Origin: Escherichia phage vB_EcoS-569R3
Sequence record: ON470597
Strand: one strand, 5' to 3'
Length of the DNA stretch: 21,562 bases
The notes under the pieces are model-generated. The model was not told the DNA's origin. It did not search any database and saw only the letters and a list, made by a program, of their open reading frames with translations. Shown here one piece after another: positions 1,672 to 7,202 of this stretch. The translations under genes and the position numbers were made by a program. Each line of letters starts with the position of its first letter. Within the stretch, counting starts at the first letter, position 1.

Positions 1672-1883
1672 AGAAATTACGGGTAACCGTAGAACCTTTT
1701 CAGGGAACAATTCCGTTCCGTATTTTGCAGCGTGGTCGTGTTCTTGTTGAAGGTTCGTTCAGTGGTAAATGTACGCAATTACACTCCCGGACCTTTCAGG
1801 TGAATGCCACGAATGAAGAGCTAACCGTGGAGTGTACGATGAATGCCGCTAAATGCCGCATGGTATTACAGCCAGTGTGTTGA
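1668..1883 (+). CDS. Hypothetical 71-aa protein translationally coupled to Rz
   Basis: ATG overlaps the Rz stop (ATGA) with GGAGGA 5 nt upstream; translation [71 protein letters not shown]. No recognisable family. Confidence 0.5.
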
Positions 1884-2081
1884 GCGACCTTATTATCCAT
1901 GCGCGGTATTGTCGCCGTATTCCTGCATTAACAGAGACCGCAGCCCGACAGGGAGACTCCTCTGCGCGAGTGTGCGGGGATAATCAAAAACGATACACAC
2001 CGGGGTTTACCGCGTTAACGGAGCGCGGCGTTGTCCCCTCATAGTCGCCTGTCCGGTGCGATGGTGGAAGAAACCGAACGT

Positions 2082-2282
2082 TCATTTCTCGTTATTTGTC
2101 ATGCTGGCCGGGCGCAGATGCGTTGCATCTGTTGCCAGCCTTCTCCTGCAGGCTTCAATAACCCACGCTGAAAAGTTACCGGACCCTTTATGCTCAAGGG
2201 CGATGTTGATCTGTTCAATTATGTGATTGGGGAAACGGATATTGCGGGTTGTGGTTCTGCGGGTCCGGTTTTTCGATGACAT
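2082..2282 (-). CDS. Small DNA-binding-like protein, DUF3950 / YlcI-like (prophage moron)
   Basis: Minus-strand ORF starting at the internal ATG (forward CAT at 2280-2282) with AGGAAA upstream; translation MSSKNRTRRTTTRNIRFPNHIIEQINIALEHKGSGNFSAWVIEACRRRL... Resembles, from memory, the DLP12 prophage YlcI family found near packaging genes. The longer ORF-track version (2082-2342) has an unsupported N-terminal extension. Confidence 0.55.
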   Translation of the reverse strand: MSSKNRTRRTTTRNIRFPNHIIEQINIALEHKGSGNFSAWVIEACRRRLATDATHLRPASMTNNEK

Positions 2283-2323
2283 ATTTATTTCCTTTACTGA
2301 TTGCCATATGACGGGGATTTTAC

Positions 2324-2689
2324 ATGGCTGAGCTTCGTACACTCCAGAGCAGAATCAAAACACTGAATACCCGACGGGTGAATATTCTGAAGGGGGAGCA
2401 GCGTCGTGTCAGTGGCAGTGCACGTGTTTCCCTCAAGCGTCATATCTGGCTGAGGGACGCCGGGCAGTGCTGTATCTGTGGTCGTGTGGTTGACCTCTGT
2501 GACAGTGAACTCGATCACCGAATTGCACTTCAGTTCGGTGGTGGTAATGAGGAGACGAATCTTTGGACGCTCTGTGCCGAATGCCATCGACAAAAGTCTG
2601 CTCGTGAAGCGGCGAGTGGTATGCCGGACCCGACGCTGCCGGAGGTGTCCGGAGGTAGTGGCAGAGAGGACGACATCATCGGACTGTAA
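2324..2689 (+). CDS. HNH endonuclease (terminase-associated, HK97 gp74-like position)
   Basis: 121 aa with HNH motif CCICGRVVDLCDSELDHRIALQFGGGNEETNLWTLCAECHRQKS (Cys pairs, DH, N, CH). Sits immediately upstream of cos/terS as in HK97-like cos phages. Confidence 0.85.
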   Translation: MAELRTLQSRIKTLNTRRVNILKGEQRRVSGSARVSLKRHIWLRDAGQCCICGRVVDLCDSELDHRIALQFGGGNEETNLWTLCAECHRQKSAREAASGMPDPTLPEVSGGSGREDDIIGL

Positions 2690-2783
2690 CCCAACCCGGG
2701 GGGGGTATCATCCGGCGTAAAAAACGATCGCTTTGGACACCGCGCCCCCTCTCACGCAGAGAAAAAATTCCCGTTTCAGGGCA

Positions 2784-2905
2784 GTTAACATGTTAACTGG
2801 CTGCCCGGGCATTTTTGCGGTTTTTATCTTTATTATTCAGTTTGTTGTGCGGAAAAAATGTTAACAGGCTTTTTCAGCAAATGTTAACCAGGCAGCAGTT
2901 AACAT
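2784..2905. repeat. Cluster of ATGTTAAC / GTTAACAT motifs (candidate terminase small-subunit binding sites, cosB-like) upstream of terS
   Basis: Perfect 14-bp palindrome GTTAACATGTTAAC at 2784-2797, ATGTTAAC at 2858-2865 and 2881-2888, inverted copy GTTAACAT at 2898-2905, in an AT-rich non-coding spacer between HNH and terS. Functional role inferred by analogy to lambda cosB. Confidence 0.5.
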
Positions 2906-2979
2906 TTGCGGCATGAGACGCCGGGAAAAATGGGCTGAACCATACCCGGCTGAGTGCGTTCTGGACCCGGGAGGAGGCT

Positions 2980-3543
2980 GTGCTGACAACGCAAAAACGA
3001 AAATTTGCGCTGGCGCTCATGTCCGGGAAAAACAAAACAGCGTCAGCCATTGCCGCCGGTTATTCGGCGAAGACCGCCAGGGTTAAAGGCTCGCAGCTGG
3101 CAAAAGATCCTGAGGTGCTTGCGTTTATAGCCCGTAAACAATGCGAGACGGTGGAGGTGGATGAGGTTCCTGTTTACCGGCAGAAAAAATCAGAGCAGGA
3201 GGATAAACCCCGTCGCCGTGAGGCGGCTGCAATACCACAGCCGGACGAAAACAATCTGGAGATGCCACCGTCCGCGGTGATGTCTCCTGGTATTGAATAT
3301 ATGGAGGATGGTCTTCCCGATCCGGTGAAAGCCATGGGGCGGATCCTGGTGGAAAACCTCTGCATTGATCCGAAACTGGCACTGGATGCGGCCTGGCGTC
3401 TGGCGCAGTTCACGCACCATAAAAAAGGGGATACCGGGAAAAAATCGGCAAAAGGTGATGCCGCGAAAAAAGCGGCTAACCGTTTTGCGGTGCCACCGCC
3501 CCCCCGACTGGTGGTGAATAACGATAATGAGGGCAACGGATGA
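2980..3543 (+). CDS. Terminase small subunit
   Basis: 187 aa; N-terminal HTH-like region KRKFALALMSGKNKTASAIAAGYSAKTARVKGSQLAKDPEVLAFI typical of phage terminase small subunits; stop overlaps the terL start (ATGA). Start uncertain: GTG at 2980 is only 2 nt after GAGGAGG; CTG at 2983 or ATG at 3019 are alternatives. Confidence 0.78.
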   Translation: MLTTQKRKFALALMSGKNKTASAIAAGYSAKTARVKGSQLAKDPEVLAFIARKQCETVEVDEVPVYRQKKSEQEDKPRRREAAAIPQPDENNLEMPPSAVMSPGIEYMEDGLPDPVKAMGRILVENLCIDPKLALDAAWRLAQFTHHKKGDTGKKSAKGDAAKKAANRFAVPPPPRLVVNNDNEGNG

Positions 3544-5201
3544 TACCTGTATGGAGCACAGCCTGCCCGGACTGGGCAGAGCGCCTGAAAAAGGGGCTGT
3601 CGATTATTCCGGATCCGATTTATCCGGACGAGGCCGCACATGCCCTGGCGATTTTTAAACAACTGCGGATTGTGGATGCACCTGGTAGCCCTACGTTCGG
3701 GGAGTCCTGTGCACCGTGGGTGTTTGACCTGGTGGCGGCCCTGTTTGGCTCCTACGATGCGCAGACCGGTGTACGCCATATCAAGGAAGTTTTTATCCTT
3801 ATCCCCAAGAAAAACTCGAAGTCCACGCTGGCCGCGGGGATCATGATGACTGCACTGTTACTGAACTGGCGGCAGGCGGCGGGTTACACGATTCTGGCCC
3901 CGACTGTGGAGGTGGCGGCCAACGCCTTCAACCCTGCCCGGGATATGGTACGACGTGACGATGATCTGGATGACCTCTGCCAGGTACAGACCCATATCCG
4001 GACCATCACCCACCGAGTGACGGACACCACCCTGAAGGTGGTGGCAGCCGATCCGAATACGGTGTCCGGTATCAAGTCCGTGGGTACGCTGATTGATGAG
4101 TTGTGGCTGTTTGGCAAGCAGTGCAAGGCGGAGGACATGTTACGTGAAGCCATAGGCGGCCTTGCCTCCCGCCCGGAAGGGTTTGTGGTGTATACGACCA
4201 CCCAGTCGAATGAACCGCCCGCCGGGGTGTTCAGACAGAAACTGCAGTACGCCCGGGATGTGCGCGACGGCAAAATTCATGATCCGCACTTTCTGCCGGT
4301 GATATTTGAACACCCTCCTGAAATGGTGGAAAGCGGGACTAACCTGCTGATGGAAAACCTCGCCATGGTCAATCCGAATCTCGGCTATTCAGTGGATGAG
4401 GCCTTTCTGTACCGGGAGTACCGTAAAGCCCGGGAAGCCGGTGAAGAGACATTCCGGGGGTTCATGTCAAAACACGCCAATGTGGAAATTGGTCTTGCCC
4501 TGCGCTCTGACCGCTGGGCGGGGGCTGATTTCTGGGAAGAGCAGGGCCGTTGTATCAGCCTGGACGATATCCTGCGTCGTGCTGATGTGGTGACGGTGGG
4601 GATTGACGGCGGAGGGCTGGATGATCTGCTGGGGATGTATGTGATTGGGCGTGACCGGGAGACCCGCGAATGGCTGGGCTGGGGCCATGCCTGGGCGCAT
4701 GAAACCGCGGTGGTCCGACGGAAGAGCGAGGCGTCCCGGTTTCAGGATCTTGTTGCCTGTGGAGATATGACCATTGTCCGGCGTGTCGGGGATGACACGG
4801 CGGAAGTGGCGGAATATGTGCGTCGCATTCATGAGGCTGAGTTACTGGACCATATCGGTATTGACCCGTCAGGGGTGGGGCAGATTCTGGATTCACTGGC
4901 GGAAGCCGGGATCCCCGACGGAATTGTGGTGGGGATAAGCCAGGGCTGGAAACTGGGCGGGGCCATTAAAACCACCGAGCGCAAACTGGCTGAAGGGGTG
5001 CTGGTGCATGGTGACCAGCCCCTGATGGCCTGGTGTGTCGGCAATGCCCGGGTGGAGCCTAAAGGTAACGCCATTCTTATCACCAAACAGGCCAGTGGAC
5101 GGGGAAAAATTGACCCGCTGATGGCGCTGTTCAATGCGGTCTCCCTGATGTCCCTTAACCCGGAACCGAAAAAGAAAGAATATGCGGTTTTTTTCATATA
5201 A
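3540..5201 (+). CDS. Terminase large subunit (Terminase_1 / HK97-type)
   Basis: 553 aa; Walker-A-like LIPKKNSKST; C-terminal nuclease region with VTVGIDGGGLDD acidic motif; translationally coupled to terS. Confidence 0.9.
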   Translation: MIPVWSTACPDWAERLKKGLSIIPDPIYPDEAAHALAIFKQLRIVDAPGSPTFGESCAPWVFDLVAALFGSYDAQTGVRHIKEVFILIPKKNSKSTLAAGIMMTALLLNWRQAAGYTILAPTVEVAANAFNPARDMVRRDDDLDDLCQVQTHIRTITHRVTDTTLKVVAADPNTVSGIKSVGTLIDELWLFGKQCKAEDMLREAIGGLASRPEGFVVYTTTQSNEPPAGVFRQKLQYARDVRDGKIHDPHFLPVIFEHPPEMVESGTNLLMENLAMVNPNLGYSVDEAFLYREYRKAREAGEETFRGFMSKHANVEIGLALRSDRWAGADFWEEQGRCISLDDILRRADVVTVGIDGGGLDDLLGMYVIGRDRETREWLGWGHAWAHETAVVRRKSEASRFQDLVACGDMTIVRRVGDDTAEVAEYVRRIHEAELLDHIGIDPSGVGQILDSLAEAGIPDGIVVGISQGWKLGGAIKTTERKLAEGVLVHGDQPLMAWCVGNARVEPKGNAILITKQASGRGKIDPLMALFNAVSLMSLNPEPKKKEYAVFFI

Positions 5202-5264: not shown

Positions 5265-7202
5265 GTGACTCTTAAACGGGCCTGTTCCCTGCTGACGGTG
5301 AAATCCTTCAGTGAGGATGAACGGGTGATCACCGGGATTGCGTCAACGCCTTCTCCGGATCGGGATGGTGACATCCTGGAGCCGGAGGGCGCGGAGTTTG
5401 GCAGTGCGATCCCGTTTCTCTGGCAGCATGACCATTCCCGCCCGGTGGGGCAGTGTACGGTGCGCCGGGTCAGCGAAGGGCTGGAAATCACGGCAACACT
5501 GGTGAAGCCCGTACCGGATATGCCGTCGCAACTGGCTGCCCGGCTGGATGAGGTCTGGGCGGCCATTAAGACCGGGCTGGTCAGGGGGCTGTCCGTGGGC
5601 TTCCGTCCCCATGAATACACCTTTCTGGACGGAGGCGGACTGCATTTTCTGCGCTGGGAACTGATGGAGGTGTCTGCCGTCACCGTGCCCGCGAATGCGG
5701 AATGCACCATCCGGACCATTAAATCTTACGACCGCCCGTTTTCTGCCGCGTCCGGCAACCGGAAACCGGTGGTGAAAATCGCATCTTCTGCCGGCGCTGC
5801 GGCACAGTCAACAACCGTTTTTCATAAGGAAAAGACCATAATGAATATTGGCGAACAGATTAAAAGTTTTGAAAACAAGCGTGCAGCGCTGGCAGCCTCC
5901 CTTGAGGAGGTCATGACCAAAGCCGCAGAGGAAGGGCGCACGCTGGATGTGGAGGAGGAAGAGCATTACGACAACACCGCAGCGGAAATCCGTCAGGTGG
6001 ATGCGCACCTGAAGCGCCTGCGTGAACTGGAAGCCGGTAAGGCCGCCACGGCGCAGCCGGTGAAACAGGCCGGTAACGGGAATGTGGCCGCGGTGGCTTC
6101 TGCGCCGGTGATCCGTGTGGAGCAGAAACTGGATAAGGGGATTGGCTTCGCCCGCTTTGCCAAATCGCTGGCTGCGGCTAAAGGCGTCCGATCTGAAGCC
6201 CTGGAAGTGGCCCGTCGTCAGTATCCGGATGACAGTCGTCTGCATCATGTCCTGAAATCGGCAGTGGGCGCGGGGACCACCACGGATCCGCAGTGGGCAG
6301 GCAGCCTGTCTGAATATCAGGAATACGCACAGGACTTTATTGATTACCTGCGTCCGCAGACCATTATCGGGCGATTTGGTCAGGGCGGGATCCCTGCACT
6401 TCGTCAGGTGCCATTCAATATCCGTGTGCACGCCCAGGTGTCCGGCGGTGCTGCCGGCTGGGTGGGTGAGGGTAAGGCAAAACCCCTGACGAAGTTTGAT
6501 TTTGAATCCATCACCTTCAGTCATGCGAAGGTGTCGGCCATTGCGGTACTGACGGAAGAATTGATCCGTTTTTCCAGTCCGGCTGCTGATGCACTGGTCC
6601 GTAATGCGCTGGCGGAAGCGGTGGTGGCGCGTCTGGATACAGACTTTGTGGACCCGAAAAAAGCCGCAGTGGCAGATGTCTCCCCGGCGTCCATCACCCA
6701 TGATGTGAAGGGCACGGCATCAACCGGTAACCCGGATGCGGATGCAGAGGCTGCGTTTGGACAGTTTGTGGCAGCAAACCTGCAGCCCACCGGTGCGGTC
6801 TGGCTGATGTCCAGCACCAATGCCCTGGCACTGTCCATGCGTAAAAATGCGCTGGGTCAGAAGGAATACCCGGACATGACCCTGCTGGGTGGCTCCTTCC
6901 AGGGGCTGCCGGTGATTGTCTCCCAGTACGTGGGTGACCAGCTGGTGCTGGTGAATGCCCCGGATATTTATCTGGCGGATGACGGCGGCGTGGCAGTGGA
7001 TATGTCCCGCGAGGCATCACTGGAAATGCAGTCTGAGCCGACCGGCGACAGTACCACGCCGTCCCCGGTGGAGCTGGTTTCCATGTTCCAGACAGGCAGC
7101 GTGGCCATCCGTGCGGAGCGCTGGATCAACTGGCGTCGTCGCCGTACTGCGGCGGTGGCGGTGATCACCGGAGTGAACTACGGCAGTGCGTCCGGCGGCT
7201 GA
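5265..7202 (+). CDS. Fused prohead protease (HK97 / U35-S78 family) and HK97-fold major capsid protein
   Basis: 645 aa, GTG start with AGGAGG 5 nt upstream. N-terminal ~170 aa carries protease motifs (GIASTPSPDRDGDILEPEGAEF, LWQHD, SVGFRP, VSAVTVPANAECTI). Then a coiled-coil delta-like segment and a C-terminal domain with HK97-capsid-like motifs (GWVGEGKAKP, ITFSHAKVSAIAVLTEELIRFS, DTDFVDP). Confidence 0.8.
   Translation: MTLKRACSLLTVKSFSEDERVITGIASTPSPDRDGDILEPEGAEFGSAIPFLWQHDHSRPVGQCTVRRVSEGLEITATLVKPVPDMPSQLAARLDEVWAAIKTGLVRGLSVGFRPHEYTFLDGGGLHFLRWELMEVSAVTVPANAECTIRTIKSYDRPFSAASGNRKPVVKIASSAGAAAQSTTVFHKEKTIMNIGEQIKSFENKRAALAASLEEVMTKAAEEGRTLDVEEEEHYDNTAAEIRQVDAHLKRLRELEAGKAATAQPVKQAGNGNVAAVASAPVIRVEQKLDKGIGFARFAKSLAAAKGVRSEALEVARRQYPDDSRLHHVLKSAVGAGTTTDPQWAGSLSEYQEYAQDFIDYLRPQTIIGRFGQGGIPALRQVPFNIRVHAQVSGGAAGWVGEGKAKPLTKFDFESITFSHAKVSAIAVLTEELIRFSSPAADALVRNALAEAVVARLDTDFVDPKKAAVADVSPASITHDVKGTASTGNPDADAEAAFGQFVAANLQPTGAVWLMSSTNALALSMRKNALGQKEYPDMTLLGGSFQGLPVIVSQYVGDQLVLVNAPDIYLADDGGVAVDMSREASLEMQSEPTGDSTTPSPVELVSMFQTGSVAIRAERWINWRRRRTAAVAVITGVNYGSASGG

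Follow-up and report, generated by a model that had tools for sequence, protein, structure and literature searches.

The small terminase G1P of phage SPP1 binds several short repeated boxes in intrinsically bent DNA that flanks the cleavage site. In phage lambda, cosB carries the gpNu1 sites R3-I1-R2-R1 between cosN and the gene Nu1 (PMC6739421), and the small terminase (TerS) of HK97 uses its central channel to bind one 15-bp site, at +15 to +29 (PMC11331095). Packaging can also be redirected, as by Rpp of the E. coli phage-inducible chromosomal islands (PICIs) with their own cosB, a parallel case of satellite logic (PMC6739421). Here we describe the corresponding region of Escherichia phage vB_EcoS-569R3 (sequence record ON470597), of which a stretch of 21,562 bp, called the window here, was analysed. 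A first-pass annotation had placed a spacer between the end of an HNH endonuclease gene at 2689 and the GTG start of the small terminase gene terS at 2980, and both bounds are correct. Probably, positions 2698–2909 of this spacer are a modular cohesive-end (cos) packaging signal of a lambdoid siphophage resembling the Shiga toxin (Stx) phages, with a cosB-like array of TerS sites beside an HK97-like cut site.

The spacer is marked by one octamer. Exact copies of ATGTTAAC occur five times in the window when both strands are searched, all of them inside 2784–2905 (122 bp); 0.37 copies were expected, and none of 100 shuffled sequences reached five. The annotated 14-bp palindrome at 2784–2797 (GTTAACATGTTAAC) is present, and its true extent is a perfect 18 bp at 2782–2799, CAGTTAACA joined to TGTTAACTG. 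The octamers reported at 2858, 2881 and 2898 were all found, as ATGTTAAC at 2858–2865 and 2881–2888 and as GTTAACAT at 2898–2905. The last two form a perfect 12-nt inverted repeat with a 9-nt gap (2877–2888 and 2898–2909). The annotation's title spoke of four more motifs; there are three, or four if the pseudo-dyad of the 2858 site is counted, which is the sole extra match in the spacer when one mismatch is allowed. The G8 run exists as well, one base to the right of where it had been put (2698–2705, not 2697–2704). As a G-run it is not unusual by chance, and its significance comes from its conservation. The features of the spacer are as follows, with the strand given where one is assigned.

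2698–2705: G8 run, upstream of the cut and conserved as an element of cos; a G5–13 run is present in 108 of 109 unique related contexts.
2735–2772: conserved cleavage core GGACACCGCGCCCCCT^CTCACGCAGAGAAAAAATTCCC, with an A6 tract at 2762–2767.
2741–2750: probable 10-nt 3′ cohesive-end sequence CGCGCCCCCT, placed by homology to phage Lys8385Vzw.
2782–2799: site I, an 18-bp perfect palindrome with two GTTAAC hexamers 8 bp apart; identical in a satellite.
2810–2850: T-tract spacer (T5 at 2812–2816, T5 at 2821–2825, T3 at 2829–2831, and ATTCAGTTTGTTG at 2835–2847), read from the sequence.
2855–2870, plus strand: site II, a single ATGTTAAC at 2858–2865 with A6 and T5 tracts on its sides; conserved in the satellite.
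2877–2909: site III, an inverted repeat GCAAATGTTAAC-N9-GTTAACATTTGC; the homology to the satellite ends just after it.
2910–2979, plus strand: terS leader, non-conserved, with the Shine-Dalgarno sequence GGAGGAGG at 2970–2977.

The first-pass annotation had treated the whole interval as signal. Its last ~70 bp (2910–2979) fall outside: they are absent from the satellite, and the window and the STEC1587 lineages described below can be aligned there only at the Shine-Dalgarno sequence. The T-tracts, which are phased, and the ATTCA...GTTG elements are retained in the satellite and variant lineages. The segment ATTCAGTTTGTTG at 2835–2847 matches the integration host factor (IHF) consensus with one mismatch, which is statistically weak, such matches being common by chance, and is not enough to build on.

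The position of the cut comes from phage Lys8385Vzw, whose spacer is 96.6% identical to that of the window (280/290 positions), with all five motifs identical. PhageTerm analysis of its virion DNA identified a cos phage with 10-nt 3′ cohesive ends of the sequence CGCCCCCCCT (PMC7946995). These ends map to window 2741–2750, within the HNH–terS spacer where the annotation had expected cos; a headful (pac) mechanism is not what this near-identical phage uses, its 3′ ends being fixed. The Lys8385Vzw record begins with CTCACGCAGAG... (window 2751) and finishes with ...GGACACCGCCCCCCCT. In the window, the top strand is probably cut after 2750, so that the packaged left end would be 2751. The only other phage records found to end in this region were prophage-derived records and that of Salmonella phage SP-016, a partial genome. 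The repeats had been described as flanking the nick site. All of them lie on one side of it, towards terS, starting 34 bp downstream of the cut, and only the G-run is on the other side. The five octamers span +34 to +155 from the cut, and site I occupies +32 to +49.

Relatives were found by searching collections of viral sequences and of genomes for GGACACCGCNCCCCC(N)CTCA, the cleavage core, and the phage-type matches share the G-run, the core and the A-tract. They fall into two classes. Class A, the type of the window, is found in E. coli and has five motifs, with ~245 nt between the start of the core and that of terS. Class B comprises Salmonella phage SP-016 and prophages of Citrobacter, Enterobacter, Kosakonia, Atlantibacter, Buttiauxella and others. 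The core is nearly invariant in both classes and in satellites, and it is identical in lineages whose downstream motifs differ. In 101 of 108 unique contexts, 44–45 nt separate the end of the G5–13 run from the cut, and the run is a candidate signal for termination or for the cleavage complex. The layout of G-run, ~45 nt, C-rich cut and A/T tract is common to HK97 (right end, L007 470–533), a Pseudoxanthomonas locus (L144) and diverse IMG/VR contigs (L203–L226), and it reaches prophages far beyond the Enterobacterales with the same TerS family, which points to what may be a widespread HNH/TerL cleavage signal. Base 4 of the overhang (window 2744) varies among the relatives, being G in 67, C in 15, A in 3 and T in 3 unique contexts. 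It varies freely, so related phages have non-identical sticky ends.

In layout, the cut site is HK97-like and the repeat array is like cosB of lambda. The comparison with the HK97 cos was sound for the gene order (HNH, cos, terS, terL) and for the large terminase (TerL), which is homologous to HK97 gp2 (BLASTP, 23% identity over ~480 aa, E 2e-11). Both systems have 10-nt 3′ ends (here from the relative Lys8385Vzw); the overhang region is C-rich in each, and an A/T tract comes immediately past the cut. The G8 run is followed by GATCA and lies 43 nt before the right end in HK97; in the window it is followed by TATCA and lies 45 nt before the cut. The terS gene of HK97 starts 49 bp past the end, with the TerS site just downstream of the cut. 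Unlike in HK97, TerS belongs to an unrelated family, with five sites of the helix-turn-helix type over +34 to +155, and the HNH proteins of the two phages are not similar in pairwise comparison. The array resembles lambda cosB in having several short repeats of mixed orientation on the first-packaged side, in the interval from the nick to terS, and a proposed bend element that separates the first site from the others; in both, the specificity appears to be exchangeable with the TerS DNA-binding domain, and satellites exploit cosB. It differs from lambda in its repeat sequence, which is unrelated, in its SF6-type helix-turn-helix TerS as opposed to the winged helix of gpNu1, in its 10-nt 3′ overhangs (in Lys8385Vzw) as opposed to the 5′ ends of lambda, in encoding an HNH cofactor, and in an IHF site that is a weak match only. 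With G1P of SPP1/SF6 it shares the TerS family and the N-terminal helix-turn-helix fold. SPP1 and SF6 package by headful, without an HNH partner or defined cohesive ends, whereas this phage family has cos ends and an HK97-type TerL.

TerS of the window was expected to be HK97-like, and this part of the comparison did not hold: no similarity between TerS and HK97 gp1 was found. Residues 1–56 form an SF6/SPP1-type helix-turn-helix domain (Pfam Terminase_2, E 1.3e-8 over residues 2–57, the match covering only the N-terminal third of the family profile), and there are weak sequence matches between the N-terminus and the SF6 DNA-binding domain. The AlphaFold2 model of the N-terminal domain has a predicted local distance difference test (pLDDT) score of 85–91 and helices at residues 4–14, 19–25, 30–41 and 44–56. 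The top Foldseek matches of this domain are 4zc3, the DNA-binding domain of SF6 TerS (TM score 0.84, root mean square deviation 1.6 Å), and 2cmp (TM score 0.81). In the model, residues 30–41 are the predicted recognition helix.

A copy of the signal, exact in all five motifs, is present in a satellite-like island of ~9.4 kb that adjoins clpS in E. coli Ec-042-T5-ESBL (NZ_CP086532; L008 1–9300, with the cos copy at L008 8960–9180; also L063). With 601 bp around the cos end of this island as the query, some 25 complete E. coli genomes give matches to at least 80% of it. The island encodes an integrase, regulators, an Icd-like gene, a RepA-type helicase and its own ClpP-protease/capsid fusion, and it encodes no terminase, HNH or portal. 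Its end carries the G8 run and a cleavage core that is almost the same as the window's, together with the palindrome and the three motifs downstream of it, and the sequence in between has diverged. The G-run is retained despite diverged flanks, and the homology stops at about window 2908. From 2784 on, the motif positions are identical to those of the window in 38/38 cases and the other positions in 57/87 (Fisher p = 5e-6). Since the island has no terS, the conservation of its motifs is not for terS coding or regulation. The island was not taken for a simply deleted prophage, given that its capsid has no detectable sequence similarity to that of the phage.

The cos cassette of this island is bracketed by TTAAC(G/A)TTTAACC repeats (TTAACRTTTAACC) at L008 8934–8949 and 9165–9181. 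A second clpS-adjacent island, in O157:H7 FRIK2069 (NZ_CP015846, L130; same type in L171), has one such repeat at the equivalent place and no cassette there (L130 6010–6040, 6550–6580). This suggests that the cassette is gained or lost by recombination between repeats that resemble TerS sites. At L130 4220–4835, the O157 island encodes its own TerS of 163 aa, 51% identical to that of the window and phage-like in its C-terminal half. This terS is directly preceded by a G10 run, the cleavage core GGACACCGCCCCCCGTCTCA and AAAAGTTACAC as a twofold direct repeat. The arrangement looks like packaging redirection driven by the satellite on a shared cut site. As in the PICI Rpp satellites and the TerS satellites of the Staphylococcus aureus pathogenicity islands (SaPIs), the helper-type core is kept, and either the helper cosB is copied (Ec-042) or an own TerS is encoded (O157). 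Unlike in those systems, the helper would be of the HNH/HK97 type, not a lambda/phi80 or staphylococcal pac phage.

A rare lineage of E. coli prophages (STEC1587, 2012C-4221, O158:H23) has the same layout with all five motifs changed to ATGTTTAY. Position 6 is changed from A to T in 5/5 copies and position 8 from C to T in 3/5. Site I of the STEC1587 lineage reads TTATAAACATGTTTATAA, site II ATGTTTAT, and the arms of site III ATGTTTAC and GTAAACAT. Between two members of the lineage that are 86% identical to each other, 38/38 motif positions are kept as against 65/87 others (p = 2e-4). Among the 37 unique class A contexts, 34 have five copies of ATGTTAAC, three have five copies of ATGTTTAY, and none is mixed. 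The window and the variant lineage share 96.7% identity in HNH, 97.1% in TerL and 99.2% in the capsid, and 78.6% in TerS. The TerS substitutions are at residues 19, 22, 24, 25, 30, 32 and 35 and in the linker; from the helices and the SF6 fold match, residues 30, 32 and 35 lie in the predicted recognition helix.

In class B, a single bipartite motif, G(T/A)TAAC-(A/G)T-GTTAAC, stands at the position of the window palindrome. The terS start codon, ATG or GTG, lies within this motif and gives Met-Leu-Thr; relative to this layout, window 2798–2979 is extra sequence. The terS start of the window, GTG CTG ACA, looks like a drifted copy of ATG TTA ACA. A class B TerS helix with ...SEKSARSKGSQL (S type) pairs with a (G/A)TAAAC left half-site, and one with ...SEKTARSQGSRL (T type) pairs with GTTAAC (or GTTGAC). 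A second site is found in the linker-coding region of class B terS, ~207 nt past the start codon. There, the loci of the S type have an internal ATGTTTAY-N9-GTAAAC inverted repeat in 34 of 42 unique contexts, with the same architecture as site III of the window, and those of the T type have a single internal GTTAAC in 11 of 14 contexts and the GTTTAC repeat in none. Sites of the TerS type thus stand both in the start codon (ATG TTA AC) and in the linker codons of class B terS (codons ~68–80; e.g. L003 3101–3330, L184 and L139). The linker codons for NVYTPAVN, AATGTTTATACCCCAGCAGTAAAC, show nucleotide-level conservation, whereas the linker is variable elsewhere.

More distant relatives of TerS are associated with the same words. 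At least two GTTAA/TTAAC words occur at the cos–terS junction in 43 of 48 unique loci, compared with 1/48 and 0/48 in two control segments outside the body of terS. The arrangement of the words varies, with direct repeats, inverted repeats and one to several copies.

Four lines of comparison suggest TerS as the reader of the motifs: their footprints in a satellite without terS, the concerted change of five copies where TerS alone of the packaging proteins differs substantially (including in its DNA-binding helix), the tracking of motif type with TerS helix type in relatives, and the enrichment of GTTAA-type words at the cos–terS junction of distant TerS relatives. They support the proposal of the first-pass annotation that the repeats are small-terminase sites, and TerS is very probably the protein that binds the five ATGTTAAC repeats, next to the cut. 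Site I is the proposed primary TerS site and ancestral terS start. We also infer the bend, the roles of the G-run and the A-tract, and the direction of packaging.

The proposed signal has two modules. The cleavage module would consist of the G-run, ~45 nt, the core GGACACCGCGCCCCCT^CTCA and the A6 tract; it is shared with many relatives and resembles that of HK97. TerL and HNH would make a staggered cut in this core, leaving the 10-nt 3′ ends at 2741–2750. The recognition module, on the first-packaged side, would consist of site I, the T-tract bend, site II and site III, each site built from ATGTTAAC. The N-terminal helix-turn-helix domains of an oligomeric TerS may occupy the three sites, in an arrangement that can be likened to R3-I1-R2-R1 of lambda. 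The T-tract region at 2810–2850 would supply the bend, which may be intrinsic or possibly assisted by IHF, for which the match is weak. The bent spacer would let a single TerS assembly contact sites I to III and position TerL/HNH on the adjacent core for initiation and, probably, for recognising the cos that follows when packaging terminates. The G-run lies on the side that is packaged last and may serve termination or the cleavage complex.

Several observations weigh against TerS as the reader, or limit how far the proposal can be carried. The recognition helix of the O157 satellite TerS is almost like that of the window, yet the repeats differ. A simple rule that pairs Ser32 with TAAAC and Thr32 with TTAAC holds in the close family only and was rejected, as it fails in more distant relatives. 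The correlation with residue 32 is not universal: L225 (Ser) and L046 (Thr) both carry AAAGTTAAAG, L135 (Thr) has a GTTTAC right half-site, and an internal GTTAAC occurs in five class B loci of the S type. The number of independent lineage contrasts behind the covariation is only about four, and symmetric changes in a palindrome are equally expected for a hairpin. The enrichment of GTTAA/TTAAC is not confined to the junction, because a third control segment, inside terS (+200 to +305), has at least two words in 10/48 loci. The HK97 TerS reads one site through its channel and does not use peripheral helix-turn-helix domains for it, so a binding mode cannot be transferred from HK97. The C-terminal half of TerS is of low confidence (pLDDT 40–70 in a single-sequence AlphaFold2 model), and the position of the ends was transferred to the window from its relative Lys8385Vzw.

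It is unlikely, given the comparisons, that the motifs belong to cos and are read by another protein, such as a host nucleoid protein, HNH, TerL or another phage DNA-binding protein. The footprint and satellite data show selection on the DNA and not the identity of the protein that reads it, an IHF-like element lies between the sites, and the link between recognition helix and motif has the exceptions given above. A host factor, however, leaves five copies changing together within E. coli unaccounted for; HNH and TerL are ~97% identical across the motif types, whereas the TerS DNA-binding domain differs; and the motif type tracks the TerS helix type across genera. We consider it very unlikely that the repeats control transcription or translation, whether as promoter-like hexamers that drive a transcript, antisense or terS-proximal, or through hairpins by which the late mRNA would adjust terS expression. 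Two motifs do make up a weak sigma-70-like match on the minus strand (TTAACA, 18 nt, TGnTAACAT), the only promoter-like match of the scan, which found no terminator-like site within the spacer. The palindromes form local hairpins whose pairing is kept by symmetric changes, and since the class B motif shares bases with the ribosome-binding site and start codon of terS, regulation of terS by binding or structure is possible there. Against this, an Rfam scan of 1800–3600 at E ≤ 1 found no family match, and RNA structure over 2770–2915 was rejected as an explanation: the folding z-score was only −1.86, and a consensus fold of four diverged copies kept the local palindromes only, the long-range pairing of the minimum-free-energy fold being lost in the satellite and the variant lineage. 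The satellite retains all five sites without a downstream terS, and site II, a single copy with no partner arm, has nevertheless changed in concert with the others.

We hold it for highly improbable that only site I matters and that sites II and III are functionless, left over from duplication or rearrangement at the 5′ end of an ancestral terS, or scars of recombination. Such an origin would fit the extra sequence at window 2798–2979 relative to Salmonella phage SP-016 and other class B prophages, the likeness of ATGTTAAC to the ancestral terS start (Met-Leu-Thr) and of site III to the internal terS repeat of class B, and the TTAACRTTTAACC repeats on the sides of the satellite cos cassette. 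Against this, sites II and III show perfect conservation amid bases that diverge by 25–34%, they changed in concert with site I, and all five copies are kept in 37/37 unique class A contexts. The ORF that starts at 2790 is not conserved; a coding reading from its ATG was rejected, since it stops after 4–5 codons in the satellite and the variant lineage.

A broader but tentative proposal, to which we give a little less than an even chance, is that the TerS DNA-binding domain and the GTTAA-type array form an exchangeable specificity cassette. It would sit on a cleavage core (G-run and C-rich 3′-overhang site) that is shared with HK97 and many Proteobacteria, and it would set packaging-compatibility groups. 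If true, the cassette sorts the lambdoid and Stx prophages of E. coli and their satellites into such groups, and satellites enter a group by an exact copy of the helper array or with their own TerS and array. In most relatives, a terS with sites in its start and linker codons would tie together coding, expression and packaging recognition. A TerS code at the level of sequence, at a defined cos, would predict which helpers package which prophages and satellites, and this prediction would matter for how stx and satellite cargo spread. Minimal cos cassettes for transducing particles would be a further product. The two natural alleles, ATGTTAAC and ATGTTTAY, with seven substitutions clustered in the TerS DNA-binding domain, are suited to dissecting how an SF6-type TerS reads DNA in a cos phage that needs HNH.

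The cohesive ends of this phage group and the partnership of HNH and terminase are already published. In the searchable literature, we did not find the ATGTTAAC array as a TerS module, its allelic variant or its use by satellites, and a search with the palindrome and overhang sequences gave no phage paper among the matches listed. The array is of the cosB type and pairs an SF6-type TerS with an HK97-type cleavage core.

Over the region tested, the window matches Escherichia phage vB_EcoS-705R7 with 100% identity, and it is ~96% identical to many Stx1- and Stx2-converting and related lambdoid phages, including BP-4795, 2851, YYZ-2008 and 1717. The HNH–terS segment was found in 1,282 of 5,426 complete E. 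coli genomes. Its carriers include Stx1- and Stx2-converting phages of O157 and non-O157 Shiga toxin-producing E. coli and a 100%-identical prophage of ST131. The genes around the spacer stand in the order HNH, spacer, terS, terL:

2324–2689, plus strand: HNH endonuclease gene, presumed cos-cleavage cofactor (Pfam HNH PF01844, E 2.7e-7).
2980–3543, plus strand: terS, 187 aa, GTG start (Pfam Terminase_2, E 1.3e-8).
3540–5201, plus strand: terL, HK97-type large terminase (Pfam TerL_ATPase and TerL_nuclease, PF03354 and PF20441).
5265–7202: prohead protease/capsid fusion, read among the genes around the spacer.

In relatives, the HNH gene is annotated as an HNH or homing endonuclease. Several phage records also list a 'putative DNase' of 43 aa with a TTG start (2733–2864), an ORF that covers both the cohesive-end cut and site I. 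With no match in Pfam and no conservation in relatives, it was rejected as a gene and is probably a spurious call. The phages further have a small YlcI/YnfO (DUF3950) gene just upstream of HNH and in the opposite orientation (window 2082–2282, minus strand). A member of this family is also present in both types of satellite (L008 2051–2356; L130 1–136).

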